DNA from: Candidatus Bathyarchaeia archaeon | Lineage (GTDB): Archaea > Thermoproteota > Bathyarchaeia > TCS64 | Direction of reading: 5' to 3' | Length of the DNA stretch: 64,000 nt | Assembly (NCBI GenBank): GCA_050014495.1 | Contig: JBEKDF010000001.1 | Coordinates: 32,001 to 96,000 of the forward strand | Shown here: one piece after another, positions 8,365-63,123 of the stretch | Layout of the letters: each line of letters starts with the position of its first letter | How positions within the stretch are numbered: position 1 is the stretch's first letter | Position numbers and translations under genes: made by a program | The notes under the pieces: model-generated | What the model was told of the DNA's origin: nothing | The model's database searches: none | What the model saw: the letters and a program-made list of their open reading frames with translations, nothing else

Positions 8365-9567
8365 ATGTTCAAGCTACTAACCGGTGGAGAAGTCTACGCA
8401 CCCGAGAAGCTCGGCAAGGTCGATATTCTAGTCACAAACGATAGGATAGTCGCTGTAGAGGAGAACCTTGAACTCCCAGGCAAATACGAGTGCGAAGTCG
8501 TTGACGCCACCGACAAGATCATTTATCCAGGCTTCGTCGACACACACATCCACTTCACTGGAGCTGACGATGGGCAGGGTCCCGTCGGCCATACCTATGA
8601 CGTCTCTTGGCAGGACATCGTGGAGAGCGGAGTGACAACCGCTGTTGGCACCCTAGGGGGCGAGATGTGGGTCAGAACCCTCGAGCAGCTCTACTGGAAG
8701 GCCGTCGAGCTGGATAAGATGGGGCTCACCACATACATCTACACGGGTGGCTTCCACATCCCACCTATCACGATAACGGGCAGCGTGAGGAGAGACATCA
8801 TCCTACTCGAGAAGGTCAGGGGACTGAAGACCGCTATCTCAGACGCGACCACCAGTCACCACACATGGAGAGAGCTCGCGGAGCTAGTCAGCGAGGTCAA
8901 CATCGGAGCCGAGACCGTAAAGAAGACAGCTGTGACTCACGTTCATGTTGGAAGGCGACCCCAGAGGATGGATATGCTCTTCGAACTCATCGAGAACACC
9001 GGCCTCGACCCTAAGGGAATAGTACCGACACACGTCAACCGAATAACGCCAGACGTAATAGCCCAGGGCATTGATTGGATAAAGAGAGGTGGTGTAGTCG
9101 ACCTTACCACACAGATGCGCAGGGAGGAGGGAACCCTAACCGGCGTCAAAACCGAGTACGCGGTGAAGAGAATGTTAGACGCGGGTTGCCCCATAGAAGG
9201 CATCACGATCAGCAGCGACGCGAACTGCCCAATGGCGATAAGGGATAGCAGCGGCAAACAGATAGGACTCTATGTAGCTCTCGTCGACTTCAACAGGAGA
9301 GAGATTAGAGACATTGTCCGAAACAGCGTCGCACCTTTTGAGGAGGCCTTAAAGATGGTGACAACAAATCCGGCCCGCGTTCTAGGTATAGATGACAGAA
9401 AAGGCAGAATCAAGCCAGGATACGATGCTGACATCGTGATCGCGAACAAGCCAGAGGACCTTAAAATCGATAAGGTCTACTCCAAGGGGAATATGCTGGT
9501 AGATGGTGGAAAAGCGCTGTTCCAAGGACACTACTGGATGGATCCCTATTACGAGATGTACCAGTAA
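8365..9567 (+). CDS. Isoaspartyl dipeptidase-like amidohydrolase
   Basis: Motifs PGFVDTHIH, GVTT, GLKTAISD, HVHVG, PTHVNR, SSD, TTNPARVLG and GYDADIV. Confidence 0.85.
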   Translation: MFKLLTGGEVYAPEKLGKVDILVTNDRIVAVEENLELPGKYECEVVDATDKIIYPGFVDTHIHFTGADDGQGPVGHTYDVSWQDIVESGVTTAVGTLGGEMWVRTLEQLYWKAVELDKMGLTTYIYTGGFHIPPITITGSVRRDIILLEKVRGLKTAISDATTSHHTWRELAELVSEVNIGAETVKKTAVTHVHVGRRPQRMDMLFELIENTGLDPKGIVPTHVNRITPDVIAQGIDWIKRGGVVDLTTQMRREEGTLTGVKTEYAVKRMLDAGCPIEGITISSDANCPMAIRDSSGKQIGLYVALVDFNRREIRDIVRNSVAPFEEALKMVTTNPARVLGIDDRKGRIKPGYDADIVIANKPEDLKIDKVYSKGNMLVDGGKALFQGHYWMDPYYEMYQ

Positions 9568-9613
9568 GCCCGACTAAGAAAACCGTTTTAGCCCGTCCAA
9601 CCACCAATACTCC

Positions 9614-10690
9614 ATGTCACAAAGCAACAGCAAAGAGAACATCAAAGAACTAGCCAACATATACAATAAACTCCATCCACAAATACACAGCGACTTCGGA
9701 GAGGAGATGCCTAAATACTGGGGAAACCGGTGGAAAGCGAACACCAGCATCGGCAAGCTCCGCACAGTCTTCGTCCACCGACCCGGTAAGGAGTTTCTAA
9801 GCGTCGGGAAGAAGACCCCATGGCCACCCCACGAGGATAGCCTTGCAGCTTGGAGGATGACCTTCAAACCGGACCTCAACGAGTTGATCAAGCATCACGA
9901 GAACCTACTAAAAGCCTACAAGGACGAGGGCATCCGCGTAGTCGTCAGAAAGCCAGATCCCAATGACCCACCCTACCAAGTGAAGAGCATCTATACCGAT
10001 GATGTCTGTCACCCCGCCGTCTACGGCCAGATCATTCTACGAATGTACGACTGGATCCGAAAAGGCGAGGAGGTACCAACCTATCAAACACTCGCCGAGG
10101 CTGGATGTCCAGTCGTCGGCATGATCGTGGGCGACGGCATGGTCGAGGGAGGATCATGCGGCTGGCTTGACGAGAAACACCTATTCATAGAGGTGCATTT
10201 CCCCAGGGGTAATACGTCAGACCCCATCATCGCAAAGGCGAATGAATTCGGTCAGGAGCAATACGCTAGAATAGTCAAACTACAGGATCCAGAAGTCGAC
10301 ATCAAGATGGACCCAGGATACGGCACAAGCAAGGGAACAATCGACTACGCCATGATTGACCGTCATACAAGCGTAGGAGATCCAATCTGGTTCGACCCAC
10401 ACCTCGTAGCGTGGATGAAGAATGAGATGAACTGGAAATTCATCGTACCACCTGACGAACTAGTATACACCGACACACATGGCGCTAAAATCGGACCAAA
10501 CACTGGCATCGTCCTAGAACCCATGAAACTAATGGTCCCAGTCGGCAATCCTAAGAACACTAAGTGGCTCGAATCCATCGGTGTCGAGGTTGTGGAAGTA
10601 GAGTGCAGTAGCCTAGTCAGGCCGAGAAACAGTGGCAGTATCCACTGCACAAGTGGTAGCCTCGAAAGGGACCCCGAGCCCTGCGATTAA
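9614..10690 (+). CDS. Amidinotransferase / arginine deiminase (pentein) superfamily protein
   Basis: Motifs SIGKLRTVFVHRPGKE, VEGG and C-terminal GSIHCTS (catalytic Cys). Confidence 0.82.
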   Translation: MSQSNSKENIKELANIYNKLHPQIHSDFGEEMPKYWGNRWKANTSIGKLRTVFVHRPGKEFLSVGKKTPWPPHEDSLAAWRMTFKPDLNELIKHHENLLKAYKDEGIRVVVRKPDPNDPPYQVKSIYTDDVCHPAVYGQIILRMYDWIRKGEEVPTYQTLAEAGCPVVGMIVGDGMVEGGSCGWLDEKHLFIEVHFPRGNTSDPIIAKANEFGQEQYARIVKLQDPEVDIKMDPGYGTSKGTIDYAMIDRHTSVGDPIWFDPHLVAWMKNEMNWKFIVPPDELVYTDTHGAKIGPNTGIVLEPMKLMVPVGNPKNTKWLESIGVEVVEVECSSLVRPRNSGSIHCTSGSLERDPEPCD

Positions 10691-49937: not shown

Positions 49938-50065
49938 CGGAATCAATTCAAGAGGAGCTTATACTCCCTTAAATGATTGTCACGCTACGATGCTTCGGTA
50001 TAGGAAAGATTAAAAGGAGGATACATTGTCCTTTTCATAGCAGTTCAAGAAAAGGTGTAATTATA

Positions 50066-50371
50066 ATGGAGTACATGTACGCCGCTATGCTTCTCCACAG
50101 CGCTAAGAAGCCCATCACTGAGGAGTCAGTAACCGCAATCCTCAACGCCGCCGGTGTCCAAGCCGATGGTGTACGCGTCAAGGCTCTTGTCGCTGCCCTC
50201 GCAGAGGTCAACATCGACGAGGCCCTTAAAACGCCGGTCTTCTCCGCTGCCGCAGCCCCAGTCGCCGCTCCGGCTGCTGAGGTTAAGGAGGAGAAGAAGG
50301 CAGCTGTGAAGCCAAAGGTTGAGGAGAAGAAGGAAGAGGATCTTCAAGGTCTGGGCGCTCTATTCGGTTAA
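50066..50371 (+). CDS. rpl12: 50S ribosomal stalk protein P1/L12
   Basis: [11 protein letters not shown], Ala-rich hinge and C-terminal GLGALFG. Confidence 0.96.
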
Positions 50372-50451
50372 CCTCCTAAACCTTATTCTATTTCTTCCCC
50401 TATTCACATTTCAGTTTCCGGAGTCTGACCATGTTGCATCATTCTCCTATA

Positions 50452-52353
50452 ATGCTCACTTCTGACGAAATCCGCAGTCGATACCTCGCCTACTATATGA
50501 GGAGAGGACACATCGAGATCCCGTCATCCTCTCTTCTACCCGAAGGCGACGTGACGACCCTCTTCACGGGATCAGGCATGCAGCCTCTGATCAAGTACCT
50601 TCTTGGCGAGCCTCATCCCTACGGAAGCCGCCTAGTGGACTCACAGAAATGCTTCAGGTCAGAAGACATAGACGAGGTGGGGGACAACAGGCACACGACG
50701 TTCTTCGAGATGCTGGGTAACTGGTCGCTGGGTGACTACTTCAAGTCGGAACAGCTTCCATGGGTATTCGAGTTTCTGGTGGAGGAGTTGGGGATAGACC
50801 CGACCCGGCTCTACGTCACAGTCTTCTCCGGAGAGAAGAAGTACGGGATCCCGAAGGACGACGAGTCCGTCGAGATCTGGCGCTGCCTCTTCAAGAAGGT
50901 GGGCATTAAGGCGAAAGCCGTCCAAATCGGTGACCCCAACCGAGGAAGCGAGGTAGGTATGCGGGGCGGTAGGATATTCTACTATAATAGCATGAAGAAC
51001 TGGTGGAGCCGGGCTGGCCCACCGGAGAAGATGCCGGCCCGCGAACCCGGGGGACCCGACTCGGAGATCTTCTACGACTTCGGCACCCCCCACGACCCCA
51101 AGTATGGGACTCACTGCCACCCGAACTGCGAATGCGGTAGGTTCATGGAGATTGGGAACTCGGTGTTCATGGAGTACAAGAAGACCGACGATGGAAGATT
51201 CGAGAAGCTACCCCAGAGGAATGTTGACTTTGGAGGAGGACTTGAGAGGATAAGCGCGGCAGTCACCGGCAACGCGGACATGTTCGCGATTGATACGCTC
51301 AAGTGCCTGACCGACGCGCTCCCAGGGGGCATCGAGGCAATGCGCTCCAAGAGGATCATAGCTGACCACGTGCGCGCCGCGGCTTTCCTCATCACCGATA
51401 GCGTCGAGCCCTCGAACAAGGATCGCGGGTATATGCTCCGCAAGCTCCTGCGGAGGTCGATCGTCCATGTGAGAATGCTTGGGCGCTATGAGGGAGACGT
51501 AAACAACCTGAGTGCTGGCTCCGATGAGATCCTTGAGCGGCTCTTCGGGATCATTTGCGACGAATACGCTGGGACGTACAAGCTCGACAGGGAGAAGATA
51601 CTCGCTGTGTTCCGGGGTGAATCCCAGAAGTTCAGGAACACCTTCACCGCGGGCATGCGCCAACTGGGACGCTATGAGACCGTGGACGTGGACACGGCCT
51701 TCAAGCTCTACGAGAGCTTCGGGCTCCCATACGAAGTGATCAAGGAGTTCGGGGGAGCCAAAGCAGCCTCCCTCACCCGTGAGGCTTTCGAGGAGAGGCT
51801 CGACGTTCACAGACAGCTCTCCCGTGCTGGAGCGGAGAAAAAGTTCGGAGGGCACGGACTAATCCTCGACACGGGGGAGCTGAAGGCGAAGGATCAGGCG
51901 GAGATGGAGAAGGTGACGCGCCTGCACACCGCGACGCACCTGCTGCACGCTGCCCTCCGAGAAGTTCTCGGAGACGAGGCGAAGCAAGCGGGATCAGACA
52001 TCACCCCCGAGCGGCTACGCTTCGACTTCACCTTCCCCCGGAAGCTGACGGAAGAGGAGATCAAGAAGGTAGAGGAGATAGCCAACAGGATCGTCCAGCA
52101 GGACGTCAAGGTAGAGTGCCGCGAGATGCCTAAAAGCGAAGCGGAGAAGACCGGAGCGCTCTTCTTCTTCAAGGCAAAGTACGGGGATAAGGTAAAGGTC
52201 TACTACACGGGGGGTAGCCTCGAAGGAGCCTTCAGCAAGGAGTTCTGTGGAGGACCCCACGTCGAGCGGACTGGCAAGATAGGTAGGATCCGAATCACGA
52301 AGGAGGAGGCGGTCGCTGCCGGGGTCCGTAGAATCAGGGCGGTTGTCGATTGA
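50452..52353 (+). CDS. alaS: Alanine-tRNA ligase, short bacterial-type form lacking C-Ala
   Basis: Motifs TLFTGSGMQP, HTTFFEMLGNWS.GDYFK, VDFGGGLER, ADH, editing HTATH and FCGGPH. Ends GVRRIRAVVD. Confidence 0.94.
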   Translation: MLTSDEIRSRYLAYYMRRGHIEIPSSSLLPEGDVTTLFTGSGMQPLIKYLLGEPHPYGSRLVDSQKCFRSEDIDEVGDNRHTTFFEMLGNWSLGDYFKSEQLPWVFEFLVEELGIDPTRLYVTVFSGEKKYGIPKDDESVEIWRCLFKKVGIKAKAVQIGDPNRGSEVGMRGGRIFYYNSMKNWWSRAGPPEKMPAREPGGPDSEIFYDFGTPHDPKYGTHCHPNCECGRFMEIGNSVFMEYKKTDDGRFEKLPQRNVDFGGGLERISAAVTGNADMFAIDTLKCLTDALPGGIEAMRSKRIIADHVRAAAFLITDSVEPSNKDRGYMLRKLLRRSIVHVRMLGRYEGDVNNLSAGSDEILERLFGIICDEYAGTYKLDREKILAVFRGESQKFRNTFTAGMRQLGRYETVDVDTAFKLYESFGLPYEVIKEFGGAKAASLTREAFEERLDVHRQLSRAGAEKKFGGHGLILDTGELKAKDQAEMEKVTRLHTATHLLHAALREVLGDEAKQAGSDITPERLRFDFTFPRKLTEEEIKKVEEIANRIVQQDVKVECREMPKSEAEKTGALFFFKAKYGDKVKVYYTGGSLEGAFSKEFCGGPHVERTGKIGRIRITKEEAVAAGVRRIRAVVD

Positions 52354-52425
52354 TACAGCCCCAATTTTTCGAATAAGGATTATTCTATAACCGAAGCGCG
52401 TCAAGCCAATTTTCTAAGGGACAGA

Positions 52426-52650
52426 GTGGCGACCGACTACTTCATCGAGATCGGGAACCGCCATCGCGGGCACGAGACACTCTTTGCCTCCGTCATGTAC
52501 ATTGAATCGGAGAAGAGGATCGCCGTAAAGGTCGAGGACCCGGCAACAGGCCAAGGCCTCCACGCAGGTAAGCTCATCAAGGAGATCGCCAAGCCTATGC
52601 GTGGTAGTGGGGGAGGACAGCAGCACCTGTGCAACTCTTTTTGCTCATAA
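52426..52650 (+). pseudogene. Remnant of an AlaRS C-Ala (DHHA1) domain
   Basis: GLHAGKLIKEIAKPMRGSGGG matches the DHHA1 A..L.K......GGxGGG pattern and then terminates early. Confidence 0.65.
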
Positions 52651-52701
52651 CCTTTATTCTCGAAGCTACCCAAGGAAACAATAGAACAGAGGTTACTCCG
52701 A

Positions 52702-55617
52702 ATGGTTGACTGGAAAACACTGGAACAGAAGTGGCAGGGGCGCTGGACGGAGGCTGCAGCCTTCGAGACCGACCCCGATCAGGAGAAGCCCAAATATTAC
52801 CTGACCGTTGCATATCCGTACCCCAACTCGCCTCAGCATATTGGCCACGGCAGGACCTACACCCTGACTGACGTACACGCCCGCTACATGAGGATGAGGG
52901 GATACAATGTCCTCTTCCCCATGGCATGGCACTTCACAGGCACACCACTATTCGCTATGGTAGAGCGCCTCAAGGAGCACGACCCGAGCCTCGTCGACAC
53001 CTTCCTCAACCTCTACGGCATACCTGAGTCAAAGCTGCACGAGTTAGAGACCCCTGTCTCAATGGCGACGTACTTCGCAAACGAGATCAAGGGGGGCATG
53101 AAGAAGATCGGTTACAGCATCGACTGGCGCCGGGAATTCACAACAGTCGATCCCTACTACAGCAAATTTATAGAGTGGCAGTTCGCCAAGCTGCGCCAAA
53201 AGGGGTACATCACACAGGGTAGCCACCCAGTCGGTTGGTGTCCTCATTGTGGTAACCCAGTCGGGCAACACGACACAATCGGGGACAAGGAGCCAGAGAT
53301 CGAGGAATTCACCCTGATAAAGTTCAGGAAGGTTGACACGGTTTTCCCCGCAGCTACCCTGCGCCCTGAGACCATCTATGGCGTCACCAACATGTGGCTC
53401 AACCCCGATGCGGTCTATGTCGAGGCTAACGTTGATGGAGAGACATGGATTGTGAGCGCTGACGCTGCTAAGAAGCTCGAGATGCTAGGACATAAGGTCC
53501 AGGTCGAGACCGAGTTCCAAGGGTCCCGCCTCATCGGTCAAACATTGACGAACCCGGCAACGGGTAAAGAGATTATAATACTACCAGCGCCCTTCGTCGA
53601 CCCTAAGAATGCTACGGGTGTAGTAATGAGCGTCCCCGCACATGCTCCATTCGACTATGTTGCCCTAGAGCAGCTGAAACGCGAGGTCAAGACAAACCCA
53701 AATGCCTACAGCATCAAGCAGAGCGATATTTCACTACTTGAGCCAATCAGTGTTATTGAGCTACCCGGCTACGGCGAGTCACCCGCCATCGACATCGTCA
53801 AAAAGATGAAGATCACAGACCAGAGCAGCCCCGACCTGGAAAAGGCGACCAAGGAGATCTACAGCGACGAGTTCCATAGCGGAAAGATGAGGGGAAATAC
53901 TGGCCAGTACGTTGGCCTAAACGTACAGGCTGCGAAGGAGGCTGTCAAAAATGACCTAATCGCCAACGGAAACGCTTCGACGATGTATGAAATGATAGAA
54001 CCCGTCAAGTGTCGCTGCGGGACAGATGTCGTTGTCAAGATATTCGAGAATCAGTGGTTCATCAACTACGGCGACGAGGCGTGGAAGAAGCTAGCGCGAG
54101 AGAATATCGATGAGATGGAGATAGTTCCTCGGGAGCTGAAGCAGGAATTTTTAAATGTCGTCGACTGGCTGAAGGCGAAAGCATGTGCAAGGAAGGCAGG
54201 GATGGGTACACGTCTGCCGTGGTCACCAGACTGGATCATCGAGTCCTTATCAGACTCCACCATCTATATGGCGTACTATACAGTAATCAAGGGCATTAAT
54301 GAGGTCAAGCCAAAGCCAGAGCAGCTGACTGAGGCCTTCTGGGACTACGTCTTCCTCGGTATAGGCACGCCCATCAAGGTCGAGGCAACCACGGGAATTC
54401 CGATGGAGAAAATTGAGGAGCTGCATAATGAGTTCAGCTACTTTTACCCCTTGGACGCCCGACACAGTGGAAGGGATCTGATACCTAACCATCTGACCTT
54501 CATGATCTTTATCCACGACGCTATCTGGGGGAGAGAACTCTGGCCCCAGGGCATCTTCGTCAATGGCTCCGTCCTCATGGAGGGTGCGAAAATGAGCAAG
54601 AGCATGAACAACATCATTCCCCTAGTCAATGCCATAGACCGCTTCGGCGCTGACCCTCTGAGACTCAGCCTCATGATCACAGCGGAGCCGCTTAAGGACG
54701 CAGACTTCAGCCCAGACCTCGCTAAGAGCATGATTGGGCTACTCGAGAACCTATACATCCGCGCACAGAGAATAGTCTCAGAGAAGCAAGACAGCGACTA
54801 TGAGCTGCAGGAGATAGACCTCTGGATGCTGAGCAGGCTGCAGAGCCATATCAGCGACGCAACCGAGGCTATGCATGAACTCAAGGTCAGGAAGACGATA
54901 CATGCTGCTACCTACGATATCGAGGGAGATATGGACTGGTACCTGAAGAGAGTAGCCTTTGACAGGGAGCATGTGGAGAGGAAGAATGCGATAAGCCACG
55001 TCGAGTGGACAGTGCTAGACACGCAGGTTAGATTGCTTGCCCCTTTCACCCCTCACATTTGTGAGGAGATCTGGGAGCAAATGGGTAATGAGGGCTTCGT
55101 CGCCTTCGCGCCTTGGCCCGAGGTCGATGGAACGCTCATCAGAGAGGACGCTGAGGAGTTGGAGACCATCATTAAAACCTGCGCCGAGGATGTCTCAAAC
55201 ATTACTAAGGTTATAGGTATCAAGCCTGAGATTATCCATTTCTACACTGCCGATAATTGGAAATGGAAGATGTTAGAGAAGGCGATAGAGATGCAAGCAA
55301 AGGGCGCAGTGGATATCGGAACCCTGATCAGGGAGGCTTTCAAGGACGAGGAGATGAAGATGAAGCAGAAGGAGGTCCCAGCCTATGCTAGGACCCTAGT
55401 GGAGGAGGTCAAGAAGATGCCCGATGCCACCCTAAAGCTTCGACGCGAGATGGGCTTCGTCAATGAGACTTCACTCCTGCAAGATGCAGAAAAGTTCCTG
55501 AGGGCAGAGTTCGGCTGTGATATCACCGTCTCAGGGGAAAGCGACCCATGGATCGTTGACCCAGCGAAGAGAGCGAGCCGCGCCAAGCCATATAGACCAG
55601 CCATCTACGTTGCCTAG
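52702..55617 (+). CDS. leuS: Leucine-tRNA ligase (archaeal type)
   Basis: Motifs AYPYPN, HIGH, ATLRPET, MSVPAHAP, KMSKS and P.RPAIY. Confidence 0.96.
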   Translation: MVDWKTLEQKWQGRWTEAAAFETDPDQEKPKYYLTVAYPYPNSPQHIGHGRTYTLTDVHARYMRMRGYNVLFPMAWHFTGTPLFAMVERLKEHDPSLVDTFLNLYGIPESKLHELETPVSMATYFANEIKGGMKKIGYSIDWRREFTTVDPYYSKFIEWQFAKLRQKGYITQGSHPVGWCPHCGNPVGQHDTIGDKEPEIEEFTLIKFRKVDTVFPAATLRPETIYGVTNMWLNPDAVYVEANVDGETWIVSADAAKKLEMLGHKVQVETEFQGSRLIGQTLTNPATGKEIIILPAPFVDPKNATGVVMSVPAHAPFDYVALEQLKREVKTNPNAYSIKQSDISLLEPISVIELPGYGESPAIDIVKKMKITDQSSPDLEKATKEIYSDEFHSGKMRGNTGQYVGLNVQAAKEAVKNDLIANGNASTMYEMIEPVKCRCGTDVVVKIFENQWFINYGDEAWKKLARENIDEMEIVPRELKQEFLNVVDWLKAKACARKAGMGTRLPWSPDWIIESLSDSTIYMAYYTVIKGINEVKPKPEQLTEAFWDYVFLGIGTPIKVEATTGIPMEKIEELHNEFSYFYPLDARHSGRDLIPNHLTFMIFIHDAIWGRELWPQGIFVNGSVLMEGAKMSKSMNNIIPLVNAIDRFGADPLRLSLMITAEPLKDADFSPDLAKSMIGLLENLYIRAQRIVSEKQDSDYELQEIDLWMLSRLQSHISDATEAMHELKVRKTIHAATYDIEGDMDWYLKRVAFDREHVERKNAISHVEWTVLDTQVRLLAPFTPHICEEIWEQMGNEGFVAFAPWPEVDGTLIREDAEELETIIKTCAEDVSNITKVIGIKPEIIHFYTADNWKWKMLEKAIEMQAKGAVDIGTLIREAFKDEEMKMKQKEVPAYARTLVEEVKKMPDATLKLRREMGFVNETSLLQDAEKFLRAEFGCDITVSGESDPWIVDPAKRASRAKPYRPAIYVA

Positions 55618-61185: not shown

Positions 61186-61770
61186 CTAGCGCGCGCTCGC
61201 GTCACCACCCACGGAAGCGCTATGCCTCTTCACAATCTCCTCGATTTCCTTCTGCATCCCCGGGTTTTCCTCGATTATCTCGTTGAGCTTGGCGACGTTG
61301 CTTCTCCACATATTTTCAGAAGTGGAGTCCCATTCCCAAGCAAAGTCGAAGAGCTCCATTAAGCTGCGAATCGAGCCCTTCATGGAGTCGAATGCTATCT
61401 CCAAGTTCCTAGCTACCTCCCGGTCCTGGATGAGCATCTCGAGGATCGGGAAGTAGGCGATCCTCGCGTCCCCCCCAATGGTGACTTCAACGCCTGCGTC
61501 GAGAGATCTGATCCGTTCACGAGGGACCCCCATCCCCGAGAGAAACTCGACAGCATTCCCGGTAGCAATCTCCATAACCTCTGGAGGAAGGTACCCGAAG
61601 AACTCACGGTAGACAAGTGAAAAAGAGCCCGAGGGAGCACGCTCCAGCTTAACTTCAAGCCTATCCGGGACGAAGCCTACGCCCTTCCCCACACCATATT
61701 TCTTGAAAACATCGTTGATTTCCTTAAAAAGGAAACCAGCATCCAATCGCCCAGAGATATCCATCGACAC
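61186..61770 (-). CDS. Hypothetical protein
   Basis: Clean ORF of about 190 aa with no recognised motif. Confidence 0.6.
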   Translation of the reverse strand: MSMDISGRLDAGFLFKEINDVFKKYGVGKGVGFVPDRLEVKLERAPSGSFSLVYREFFGYLPPEVMEIATGNAVEFLSGMGVPRERIRSLDAGVEVTIGGDARIAYFPILEMLIQDREVARNLEIAFDSMKGSIRSLMELFDFAWEWDSTSENMWRSNVAKLNEIIEENPGMQKEIEEIVKRHSASVGGDASAR

Positions 61771-61803
61771 GCATACTCTGCAGAGATGATATAAACGAGA
61801 CCC

Positions 61804-62073
61804 CTATTTTGGGAGGGCCATCGTAGCCTTACGGAAATACTTTAGGACATTCATCCCCGACTCTGTAATCTCATATCTTTTGACGTCTCTCTCCTTCCCA
61901 GCCTGCTCCTCATTCTCAGTTATTAAGCCCTGAGTAATGAGATTGTTGAGAATATTTTGAAAAACCTTCCAGGAGAGGTTAGCACTATACATTATCCTCG
62001 TGGGCTTGGCTTCACCTTTCATTATAATCTCGAGGACTTCTATGTATATCTCGACTTTACCTCTCCTAGGCAT
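61804..62073 (-). CDS. Winged helix-turn-helix transcriptional regulator
   Basis: Pattern RR.K.EIY..IL...PTRIMYSANLSW...YEITE.G. Confidence 0.88.
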   Translation of the reverse strand: MPRRGKVEIYIEVLEIIMKGEAKPTRIMYSANLSWKVFQNILNNLITQGLITENEEQAGKERDVKRYEITESGMNVLKYFRKATMALPK

Positions 62074-62565
62074 ATTGAACACATGCTTGATGTGGCGCAA
62101 ACATAAGGTTTTCCCAATCAGCCAATAATATACATATGATTTACCAAATCCATCTGTGCAGATACTCCTGAAACTATTTTTTAAAGGCAGATGGTGGGGT
62201 GACTTGAATACAACAAAAGAATGTGAGAGGAAGGTGGACAAGATGCGCGCGTGACCGACTTATAATCCAGCCAATATGAAGCCCTCATCCTTCGAGGACA
62301 GTATTAGTCAAAAAAATTCAGCATTCAACATTTAGGACCATCTTAAGTAATTATCAGTTGAAGTAGAGGAAGCGACGTAAATCTGTGTTATATCAAGAGG
62401 CTCACCGAAGACTAACTCGCTTAGAATTATGGACCAAAAACCTAACTTCTTGCTTAAAAAAAATGCTTAAAACACGTTAAAAACACAAAAATCTATATAA
62501 AAAATATGAATCAGGGAACCACAACGGCTTTTATCATCAACGTCTTAATGATATCGATCTTAGTA

Positions 62566-63123
62566 ATGTCTCTGAAGGAGAAGATAGACGTCCTTGACTT
62601 CCTCATAAGTATACTAAAGGAGCATGAAGAGAGCTTGTACGAGATAACCCAAAGACTCGAAAAGCTCTCCGAAAGGCTTGAATCGGGAGAGGTCAAGCCA
62701 GAGGATAAAACTCTAATAGAGGAGGCGAAAAGGCAAGCTGAAAATATTGTCTCAGACAAGTCCAGTATCTTGATAGTCGATGACGATGAGTTCCTCACCG
62801 AGACATTCAAGGTCATCCTGGAGACTGTAGGCTATAATGTGGAGATCGCTGCATCGGGTATGCAGGCGATACACAAGACTAAGGACCGGGACTTCGACTT
62901 AATAATTCTGGATATAAAGCTCCCCGACATCAATGGGGACGAAGTTGCCCGCATTATGAAAAAGCAGGGTAAGAAGACGAAGATAGTCATGATAACCGGC
63001 TACGAAAAACTCGCAGAGGGACTTAAAGGTGAGCCAATGGATGTAAAGGAAGTCCTTATGAAGCCTGTAAGTCCGAATAGTCTTCTTACTGTAACTAAGA
63101 AGGTTTTACAAGACAATAAGTAG
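62566..63123 (+). CDS. Response regulator receiver with N-terminal coiled coil
   Basis: Motifs ILIVDDD, LDIKLPD..G, MITGY and KP. Confidence 0.9.
   Translation: MSLKEKIDVLDFLISILKEHEESLYEITQRLEKLSERLESGEVKPEDKTLIEEAKRQAENIVSDKSSILIVDDDEFLTETFKVILETVGYNVEIAASGMQAIHKTKDRDFDLIILDIKLPDINGDEVARIMKKQGKKTKIVMITGYEKLAEGLKGEPMDVKEVLMKPVSPNSLLTVTKKVLQDNK

Follow-up and report, generated by a model that had tools for sequence, protein, structure and literature searches.

Replacement of an aminoacyl-tRNA synthetase by a divergent form of the same enzyme is known from several homeoallele systems. For TyrRS, ThrRS and SerRS, the divergent forms swap among relatives, usually with one form per genome, and partly by recombination in the flanks that preserves synteny (as set out in parts of PMC3191353); the LeuRS homeoalleles of haloarchaea are described likewise (PMC3436685). 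The effector modules of the Vibrio cholerae type VI secretion system (T6SS) are displaced sequentially by homology-facilitated illegitimate recombination (PMC5361080). As to alanyl-tRNA synthetase (AlaRS), the enzyme of Nanoarchaeum equitans is split into two subunits (summarised in PMC10036535), and a small-AlaRS, which corresponds to NF002436/PRK01584, has been presented in a preprint (bioRxiv 10.1101/2023.05.29.542759). Here we describe a stretch of 64,000 nt from a Candidatus Bathyarchaeia archaeon (the window; its genome is G000 below), in which the genes rpl12, alaS and leuS follow one another. An alaS related to those of the Candidate Phyla Radiation (CPR) very probably sits within the former bounds of the native archaeal alaS, flanked by native start signals and a broken piece of the native C-terminal domain (C-Ala), its cassette having come likely from a related archaeon by recombination on short anchors.

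The gene in question (50452–52353; all window features given here lie on the forward strand) encodes a small AlaRS of 633 aa, designated type A below. It is the sole AlaRS in a genome that is 96% complete, the remaining matches being short editing-domain (AlaX-like) genes. A preliminary description, made from the letters of the window, had pointed to bacterial-style motifs (LFTGSGMQP and HTTFFEMLGNWSLGDYFK) and to the C-terminal end GVRRIRAVVD, all of which are present in the translation. The product covers positions 1–451 of the 552 in the Pfam model tRNA-synt_2c (PF01411) and matches tRNA_SAD (PF07973); PF01411 positions 452–552 are uncovered and DHHA1 is not matched, so that both the barrel and C-Ala are missing. 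The NCBIfam model NF002436/PRK01584 was passed with 571.6 bits (cut-off 529), making the enzyme a member of the small-AlaRS family, and the archaeal model TIGR03683 was failed with 204.8 bits (cut-off 744.7), in keeping with a protein of 633 aa against the ~900-aa type with an N-terminal extension. Homologs with 81–82% identity are labelled Bathyarchaeota or Bathyarchaeia by their sources, and the best-matching runs for the window stretch are peat and wetland metagenomes.

The displaced gene is still represented at the site. A 74-codon open reading frame (ORF; 52426–52650) begins 72 bp after the alaS stop and ends 51 bp before leuS, spacings that the preliminary description had given correctly. 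Aligned to the full-length AlaRS of a genome of the same genus (G002), which carries a 906-aa native enzyme between rpl12 and leuS, it shows 66.7% identity over 72 aa (residues 810–881), and with an E value of 4e-28 the likeness is not a matter of chance. The proposed DHHA1/C-Ala signature was recovered, narrowly, with Pfam (26.4 bits, cut-off 25.9; E 1e-5), and the best matches of the remnant are the C-termini of full-length AlaRS from same-genus genomes, at the same rpl12–alaS–leuS site. DNA alignments to G002, G016 and G004 place the decayed 3′ fragment of native alaS, from the globular C-Ala domain, at 52394–52627, corresponding to native nt ~2390–2634; its start ~30 nt before the ORF is an addition to the preliminary description. 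Within the fragment, a native-frame stop at 52415–52417 is followed by a 1-nt deletion just before the ORF, and a +1/−1 indel pair near 52458–52477 scrambles five codons. A 92-nt deletion joins native position 2634 to 2727 and removes the last 29 native codons together with the stop, and the ORF, after 67 remnant codons, therefore runs for seven codons into a conserved element upstream of leuS (52628–52659), a likely promoter with matches in 43 of 50 family loci. This ~30-nt element is also where several deletions or right junctions terminate.

The fragment has decayed further in a sister strain, which has a stop at 52579 and lacks one nucleotide each at 52363 and 52458 in all four runs compared over 52300–52760 (all from 2025 and possibly one campaign); lacking the +1 at 52458, its ORF frame is broken. 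Eight sister-strain substitutions fall in the remnant portion of the ORF, and seven of them change an amino acid or create a stop; among the alaS differences listed the proportion is 14 of 34 (Fisher p = 0.045). The dN/dS of the remnant against G002, G016 and G004 is raised, though not significantly, with synonymous sites near saturation. Its divergence from G002 does not significantly exceed that of a functional pair, which fits a recent death but is no proof of it. The 74-codon ORF is a decaying fossil of the displaced native alaS.

At the 5′ side a second native relic, likewise an addition to the preliminary description, occupies 50420–50438 and aligns to the native alaS start in G002 and G016. 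It contains the ribosome-binding site GGAG and two start codons, the native TTG (50434) and a new ATG (50431), which lie 18 and 21 nt upstream of the foreign ATG and both in frame with it, so that the foreign alaS would be able to use the native initiation signals. A short leader (50439–50451), donor-side by eye, resembles the DNA just 5′ of type-A alaS in G006, G008 and G012. Behind the foreign gene, ~40 nt of non-native tail (52354–52393) are similar in G011 and mark a 3′ junction common to both genomes. The slot is bounded by rpl12, encoding ribosomal stalk protein P1 (50066–50371; TIGR03685, 110.6 bits, cut-off 100), and by the native archaeal leuS (52702–55617; TIGR00395 leuS_arch, 1039.9 bits, cut-off 648.5). 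Relatives from the genus up to the class keep a full-length native alaS there.

Both joints are continuous in other data. Four of 24 listed runs, none of the four flagged as a possible source, were compared over 50000–53200; no RNA dataset is listed among those containing the stretch. Two contigs of run X4 (50036–51402 and 51398–52970) bridge both junctions with 0 differences, a contig of run X7 bridges the 5′ junction, and one 4,515-nt contig of run X12 spans 50311–53200, from the end of rpl12 into leuS, with 74 differences. The phylogeny given below, the same-site match of the remnant and the bridged junctions together support the original proposal that the native archaeal alaS was overwritten in place by a foreign gene.

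The small genes were grouped by identity into types A, B and C before tree building, and trees of 192 and 39 proteins were calculated. Type A nests in a Paceibacteria/Parcubacteria clade on a starred branch, with a Shimodaira–Hasegawa-like approximate likelihood ratio (SH-aLRT) value of 99 for the grouping with Sungbacteria/Paceibacterota; the enzyme falls among CPR and far from native archaeal AlaRS. Its nearest taxon-named relatives are Paceibacterota, Parcubacteria and Sungbacteria proteins at 60–61% identity, with a further group at 65–71%; the closest relatives of types A and C (61–72%) carry no taxon name. The 80 best GTDB loci for type A are mostly Patescibacteria. Parcubacteria can reportedly live as ectosymbionts of archaea (bioRxiv 10.1101/2022.04.20.488981). 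The type B enzymes (~588 aa) are 39–44% identical to type A. Their clade includes small genes of three other families of the class Bathyarchaeia and a contig with an AlaRS from a cluster named Aenigmatarchaeota, and its sister is a Komeilibacteria protein; the tree gives no direction of transfer between Aenigmatarchaeota and Bathyarchaeia. Type C, found in G007, nests among Microgenomates (Woesebacteria, Collierbacteria). A single clade of A, B and C is rejected by the approximately unbiased test (p-AU 6e-81), and the three types are three unrelated small-AlaRS lineages in one slot.

Searches for possible carriers gave little. Nine loci from viral collections encode AlaRS relatives (32–47% identity over long matches), and with a best value of 47% there is no close viral carrier of type A among them. 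An Atlas search with type B returned generic AlaRS clusters only; one with a neighbour gene pointed to DPANN, which we take as a lead only. A search of the type A, B and C coding sequences for stretches patched in from the native gene found none.

An AlaRS match was obtained in 59 of 71 family genomes, distributed over 10 type A, 28 type B, 1 type C and 20 native genes; thus 39 genomes hold a small and 20 a native gene, one each and never both. The small gene has rpl12 upstream and/or leuS downstream in 38 of the 39 cases (rpl12 in 36, leuS in 33, both in 31), and the contig of the remaining one shows neither neighbour. The type C gene (8414–10279 of its contig) is inverted in the slot. Across the class, 54 of the 401 genomes searched have a small gene. 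Among the 16 outside the family, two lie between rpl12 and leuS, nine downstream of rpl12 on the same strand, three near an oppositely oriented rpl12, one on a short contig and one (G163) elsewhere. No full-length archaeal alaS was detected in the five non-family small-gene genomes tested. In other families, G163, G149, G155 and G391 have a small alaS outside the slot or beside an inverted ribosomal operon, and a native gene was not found in them. In a sample of the phylum, seven of 401 genomes carry a small gene, all seven belonging to the class Bathyarchaeia.

Replacement is likely recurrent across the family, going beyond the single event first proposed. A species tree of 59 rows was built from linked markers (leuS, rpl12, amidase, rps19e and rps3ae) with two outgroups added; G054 and G086 were left out for low coverage, and 11 rows are less than half filled. 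On this tree at least 10 switches between native and small genes are needed, each of them required by starred branches. For four genera out of four, the native genes of a genus make up a single clade, and their distances at 4-fold sites resemble those of leuS in all five comparable pairs. Small genes behave differently: the type-B genes of genus g8 enclose those of three further genera, and monophyly of the g8 genes is rejected (p-AU 7e-4). At 4-fold sites, the type-A alaS distance of G000 to G009 and G011 is 0.31 and 0.32 against 0.64 and 0.66 for EF2, and that of G005 to G003 and G015 is 0.41 and 0.40 against 0.66–0.71 (leuS 0.69 and 0.68). The native control pair G002–G016 gives 0.64 for alaS, 0.60 for leuS and 0.66 for EF2. 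The leuS distances of G009 and G012 were excluded owing to breaks in the extracted frame. The small genes move across species and genera; the native genes follow the genus tree.

Native remnants persist in nine of 38 small-gene loci (G000, G005, G009, G011, G041, G046, G061, G066 and G079) and in seven of 80 metagenome loci. Their limits differ from locus to locus, and N-terminal, linker and editing-domain pieces are included. In native nucleotide numbering, G011 retains 1–33 and 2401–2721, G009 1–33 and 2623–2721, and G005 1369–1656 and ~2341–2721; in amino acids, G061 retains 1–36 and 656–703, and G041 1–64 and 294–326. Native pieces flank the foreign gene on both sides in G009, G011, G041 and G061. 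The stubs of G000 and G011 exceed the functional divergence from G002 by only ~0.03–0.05 at non-synonymous sites, and the two genomes have the 3′ junction position in common, although 0.32 of neutral sites differ between their cassettes. Little-diverged stubs beside strongly differing cassettes would mean a separate and recent conversion of the two lineages, with the crossover lying in the stub of the donor. In G017 an older type-A 3′ stub of 51 codons, 76% identical to the present allele, lies 1.3 kb downstream behind intervening genes, which makes this a case of serial overwriting, with one foreign allele replacing another.

Two details of these loci may be mentioned separately. At the 5′ junction of G009 and G011, the foreign ATG is preceded by eleven native codons joined to it out of frame; the short leader frame so formed ends just inside the foreign gene, which makes translational coupling possible. 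The C-Ala piece of G005, 126 open codons in the alaS–leuS gap, comprises the whole globular C-Ala with only a CTG at the start and constitutes the best free-standing C-Ala candidate; the native piece that precedes it has several indels and a stop.

The boundaries between donor-like and recipient-like DNA point to how the cassettes travelled. In G046/G048, G014 and G005 the sequence is recipient-like through most of rpl12, donor-like from its last 20–40 nt onward, with a return to the recipient type upstream of leuS; the conserved 3′ end of rpl12 is thus the point where donor-like DNA begins in these relatives. In G041 the recipient-like part comprises the spacer and 64 native codons, which places the left joint inside the native gene. 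Right joints vary among loci, and short-homology crossovers on both sides fit the junction data too. The flanks of G000 are equally close to the candidate donor and to vertical relatives. We infer that first captures were rare illegitimate insertions into alaS from CPR or DPANN donors, survivable only because the insert would supply the essential AlaRS function. Later spread would proceed by allele replacement, with the rpl12 3′ end or a native 5′ stub as the left anchor and, on the right, the 3′ stub of the dead gene itself or else an illegitimate joint. An illegitimate right joint would leave behind a new fragment of the native gene of the recipient, in the manner of homology-facilitated illegitimate recombination. 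The weakest step is to attribute the one-way bias from native to small genes to selection, for example for escape from an inhibitor of the archaeal-type enzyme or for the economy of a protein shorter by ~270–320 aa.

The editing motifs HTATH and CGGxH are intact in all eight complete type-A proteins, the three host tRNA-Ala genes all have G3 and U70, and the equivalent of E. coli N303 (Asn) is retained. A viral AlaRS without C-Ala is active (PMC10036535), which makes stand-alone function of the window's enzyme plausible by analogy; it may charge the host G3:U70 tRNA-Ala alone, without C-Ala.

Four other explanations were weighed. The C-Ala ORF might be retained as a trans-acting domain of a split enzyme, lending tRNA-elbow binding to the foreign core. 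Such a role would suit an ORF that still exceeds the DHHA1 cut-off and whose frame is restored by the +1/−1 pair, and C-Ala is both the main tRNA-binding module of E. coli AlaRS (PMC10036535) and the commonest leftover in type A (four of the eight loci with a contig reaching past the stop); in G005 the 126 open codons are kept at near-functional divergence (dN 0.163 vs 0.141). However, the 29 terminal C-Ala codons are gone in G000, the sister strain is frameshifted with an internal stop, G009 keeps 32 codons only, G011 is frameshifted, and G003, G012, G015 and G017 have none. The remnants of other loci are not C-Ala at all, the G005 piece has no ATG, GTG or TTG before codon 53, and no C-Ala-like ORF lies beside alaS in the 80 mostly CPR loci. 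We consider a split enzyme very unlikely; the preliminary description had already rated it the lesser option, and the deletion in the ORF and its breakage in the sister strain disfavour it here. Far less probable still is an artefact, be it a CPR gene wrongly assembled or binned into an archaeal contig or a fusion of foreign core and remnant by TGA read-through, which we regard as practically negligible. Bin contamination is 7.5%, and alaS, remnant and leuS do share one frame, but the X4 contigs bridge both junctions with no difference, the 4.5-kb X12 contig runs from the rpl12 end to leuS, nine other genomes have the same allele type at the site, and the frame is interrupted by the sister-strain 1-nt deletions at 52363 and 52458, with remnants lying in other frames elsewhere.

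The remaining two concern history. If native and small alaS had once stood in tandem and been lost differentially, without repeated transfer, the patchy native/small distribution on the species tree and the remnants adjoining the small gene would both be accounted for. Against this, native pieces occur on both sides of the small gene, none of the 59 genomes holds both forms, the type-B tree conflicts with the genera (the p-AU of 7e-4 above), type-A synonymous distances amount, for some pairs, to roughly half those of the species, and three unrelated small lineages would have to be accommodated, so that we find old coexistence extremely improbable. Flank recombination could work in both directions, and a single gain per small lineage with later re-acquisition of the native gene in scattered full-length genomes would suit G002, G016, G065 and G069, full-length tips deep among small-gene genomes; change counts cannot distinguish gain from loss. 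Yet the native genes cluster by genus with 4-fold distances equal to those of leuS (the five pairs above), and the remnants in G000, G011, G005, G041 and G046 are young and recipient-like, as expected from fresh losses of the native gene. Two-way exchange is accordingly judged improbable to a high degree, though reversions within a genus may have occurred, and repeated replacement of the native gene in place is the reading we prefer.

Several observations weigh against this preference. The species tree was built from linked genes, with 11 rows that are gappy; in the EF2 tree the backbone is weakly resolved and G000 does not group with G002. The equivalent of E. coli D400 (Asp, which reads G3; residue ~419) is Glu in 10 of 10 type-A enzymes and Gln in type C and in 27 of 28 type-B enzymes; it varies among CPR relatives. 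Decay of the window's remnant is not significant by divergence from G002 at codon positions 1 and 2 (25/134 vs 16/134 in the functional pair, p = 0.17) or by lineage-specific synonymous to non-synonymous counts (4:15 vs 6:8, p = 0.26), and the 126 codons of the G005 piece form an open frame, free of indels, as far as the native stop. The type C gene is inverted and has no native stub, G163 has its small gene away from rpl12 and leuS, and in three genomes of family f29 rpl12 points the other way. Since the foreign genes contain no native patch, nothing shows how the first captures were aimed at the slot, and the argument from an insert that carries AlaRS does not itself explain why insertion elsewhere is rare.

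Base composition does not help to decide the origin of alaS. GC contents are 58.1% for alaS, 58.1% for rpl12, 59.2% for the remnant and 53.0% for leuS; the preliminary description was right that alaS is richer than leuS, but with rpl12 and the remnant as GC-rich as alaS this is no evidence of foreign origin. Both GC and GC3 were rejected as signs of a foreign gene, alaS being host-like. Near the window end GC falls to 38–44% over ~1 kb (61500–63000). The alaS–leuS gap often holds unrelated inserted genes of 0.8–3.5 kb (G012, G041, G044, G071, G060 and G021), also in one genome with native alaS, which marks it as an insertion-prone site.

A bolder reading would have the small AlaRS sweeping through Bathyarchaeia under positive selection, for example for escape from an inhibitor or toxin directed against the archaeal-type enzyme, after at least three captures from CPR and from DPANN related to Aenigmatarchaeota, with gene conversion between genera on tens of nucleotides and the dead gene's stub as a landing arm. 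We put this forward tentatively, as possible rather than probable. If true, it would be direct genetic evidence that CPR and DPANN symbionts donate core translation genes to Bathyarchaeia, and an essential synthetase would behave like a conflict locus. The locus is in any case an unusually well-resolved natural record of an essential universal gene swapped in place across domains, and because intact relatives, fresh scars and decayed scars coexist, breakpoints and their relative ages can be read. It points to gene flow from ultra-small CPR and DPANN lineages into abundant sediment and peat archaea, and cautions that alaS is unsuitable as a marker gene in Bathyarchaeia. Enzymes that lack C-Ala by nature, presumably act on archaeal tRNA and have a changed residue at the G3:U70 contact (Asp to Glu or Gln) make the need for C-Ala directly testable.

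We found no paper on AlaRS replacement in Bathyarchaeia in the open literature, from which subscription journals are mostly absent, so that novelty is not proven; nor did that literature yield a recurrent multi-donor replacement with mapped scars at rpl12–alaS–leuS. The portions available of PMC9425974 and PMC8407114 do not mention AlaRS replacement. The main text of the small-AlaRS preprint does not contain 'Bathyarch', and its available passages are given without genomic context, whereas here three lineages occupy one native locus with scars. Compared with N. equitans, AlaRS domains again lie on two reading frames, but there both subunits make up one intact native enzyme, and here a foreign core stands beside a decaying piece of the displaced gene. 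The Vibrio T6SS modules share with our locus the displaced 3′ end pushed downstream and the serial layers (as in G017), and may also share the upstream homology anchor and the illegitimate downstream joint; their cargo, however, belongs to a conflict system, while the archaeal locus exchanges an essential enzyme of translation and its leftover has no function. As in the synthetase homeoalleles, a foreign ortholog is found at the ancestral locus, the native gene is lost and the gene tree conflicts with the species tree. Unlike them, the incoming forms derive from CPR and DPANN, the exchange is apparently one-way, displaced fragments persist and the anchors are only some tens of nucleotides long. 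Replacement by homeoalleles in situ is already known, and what stands out here are the three donors, the at least 10 switches and the readable scars.

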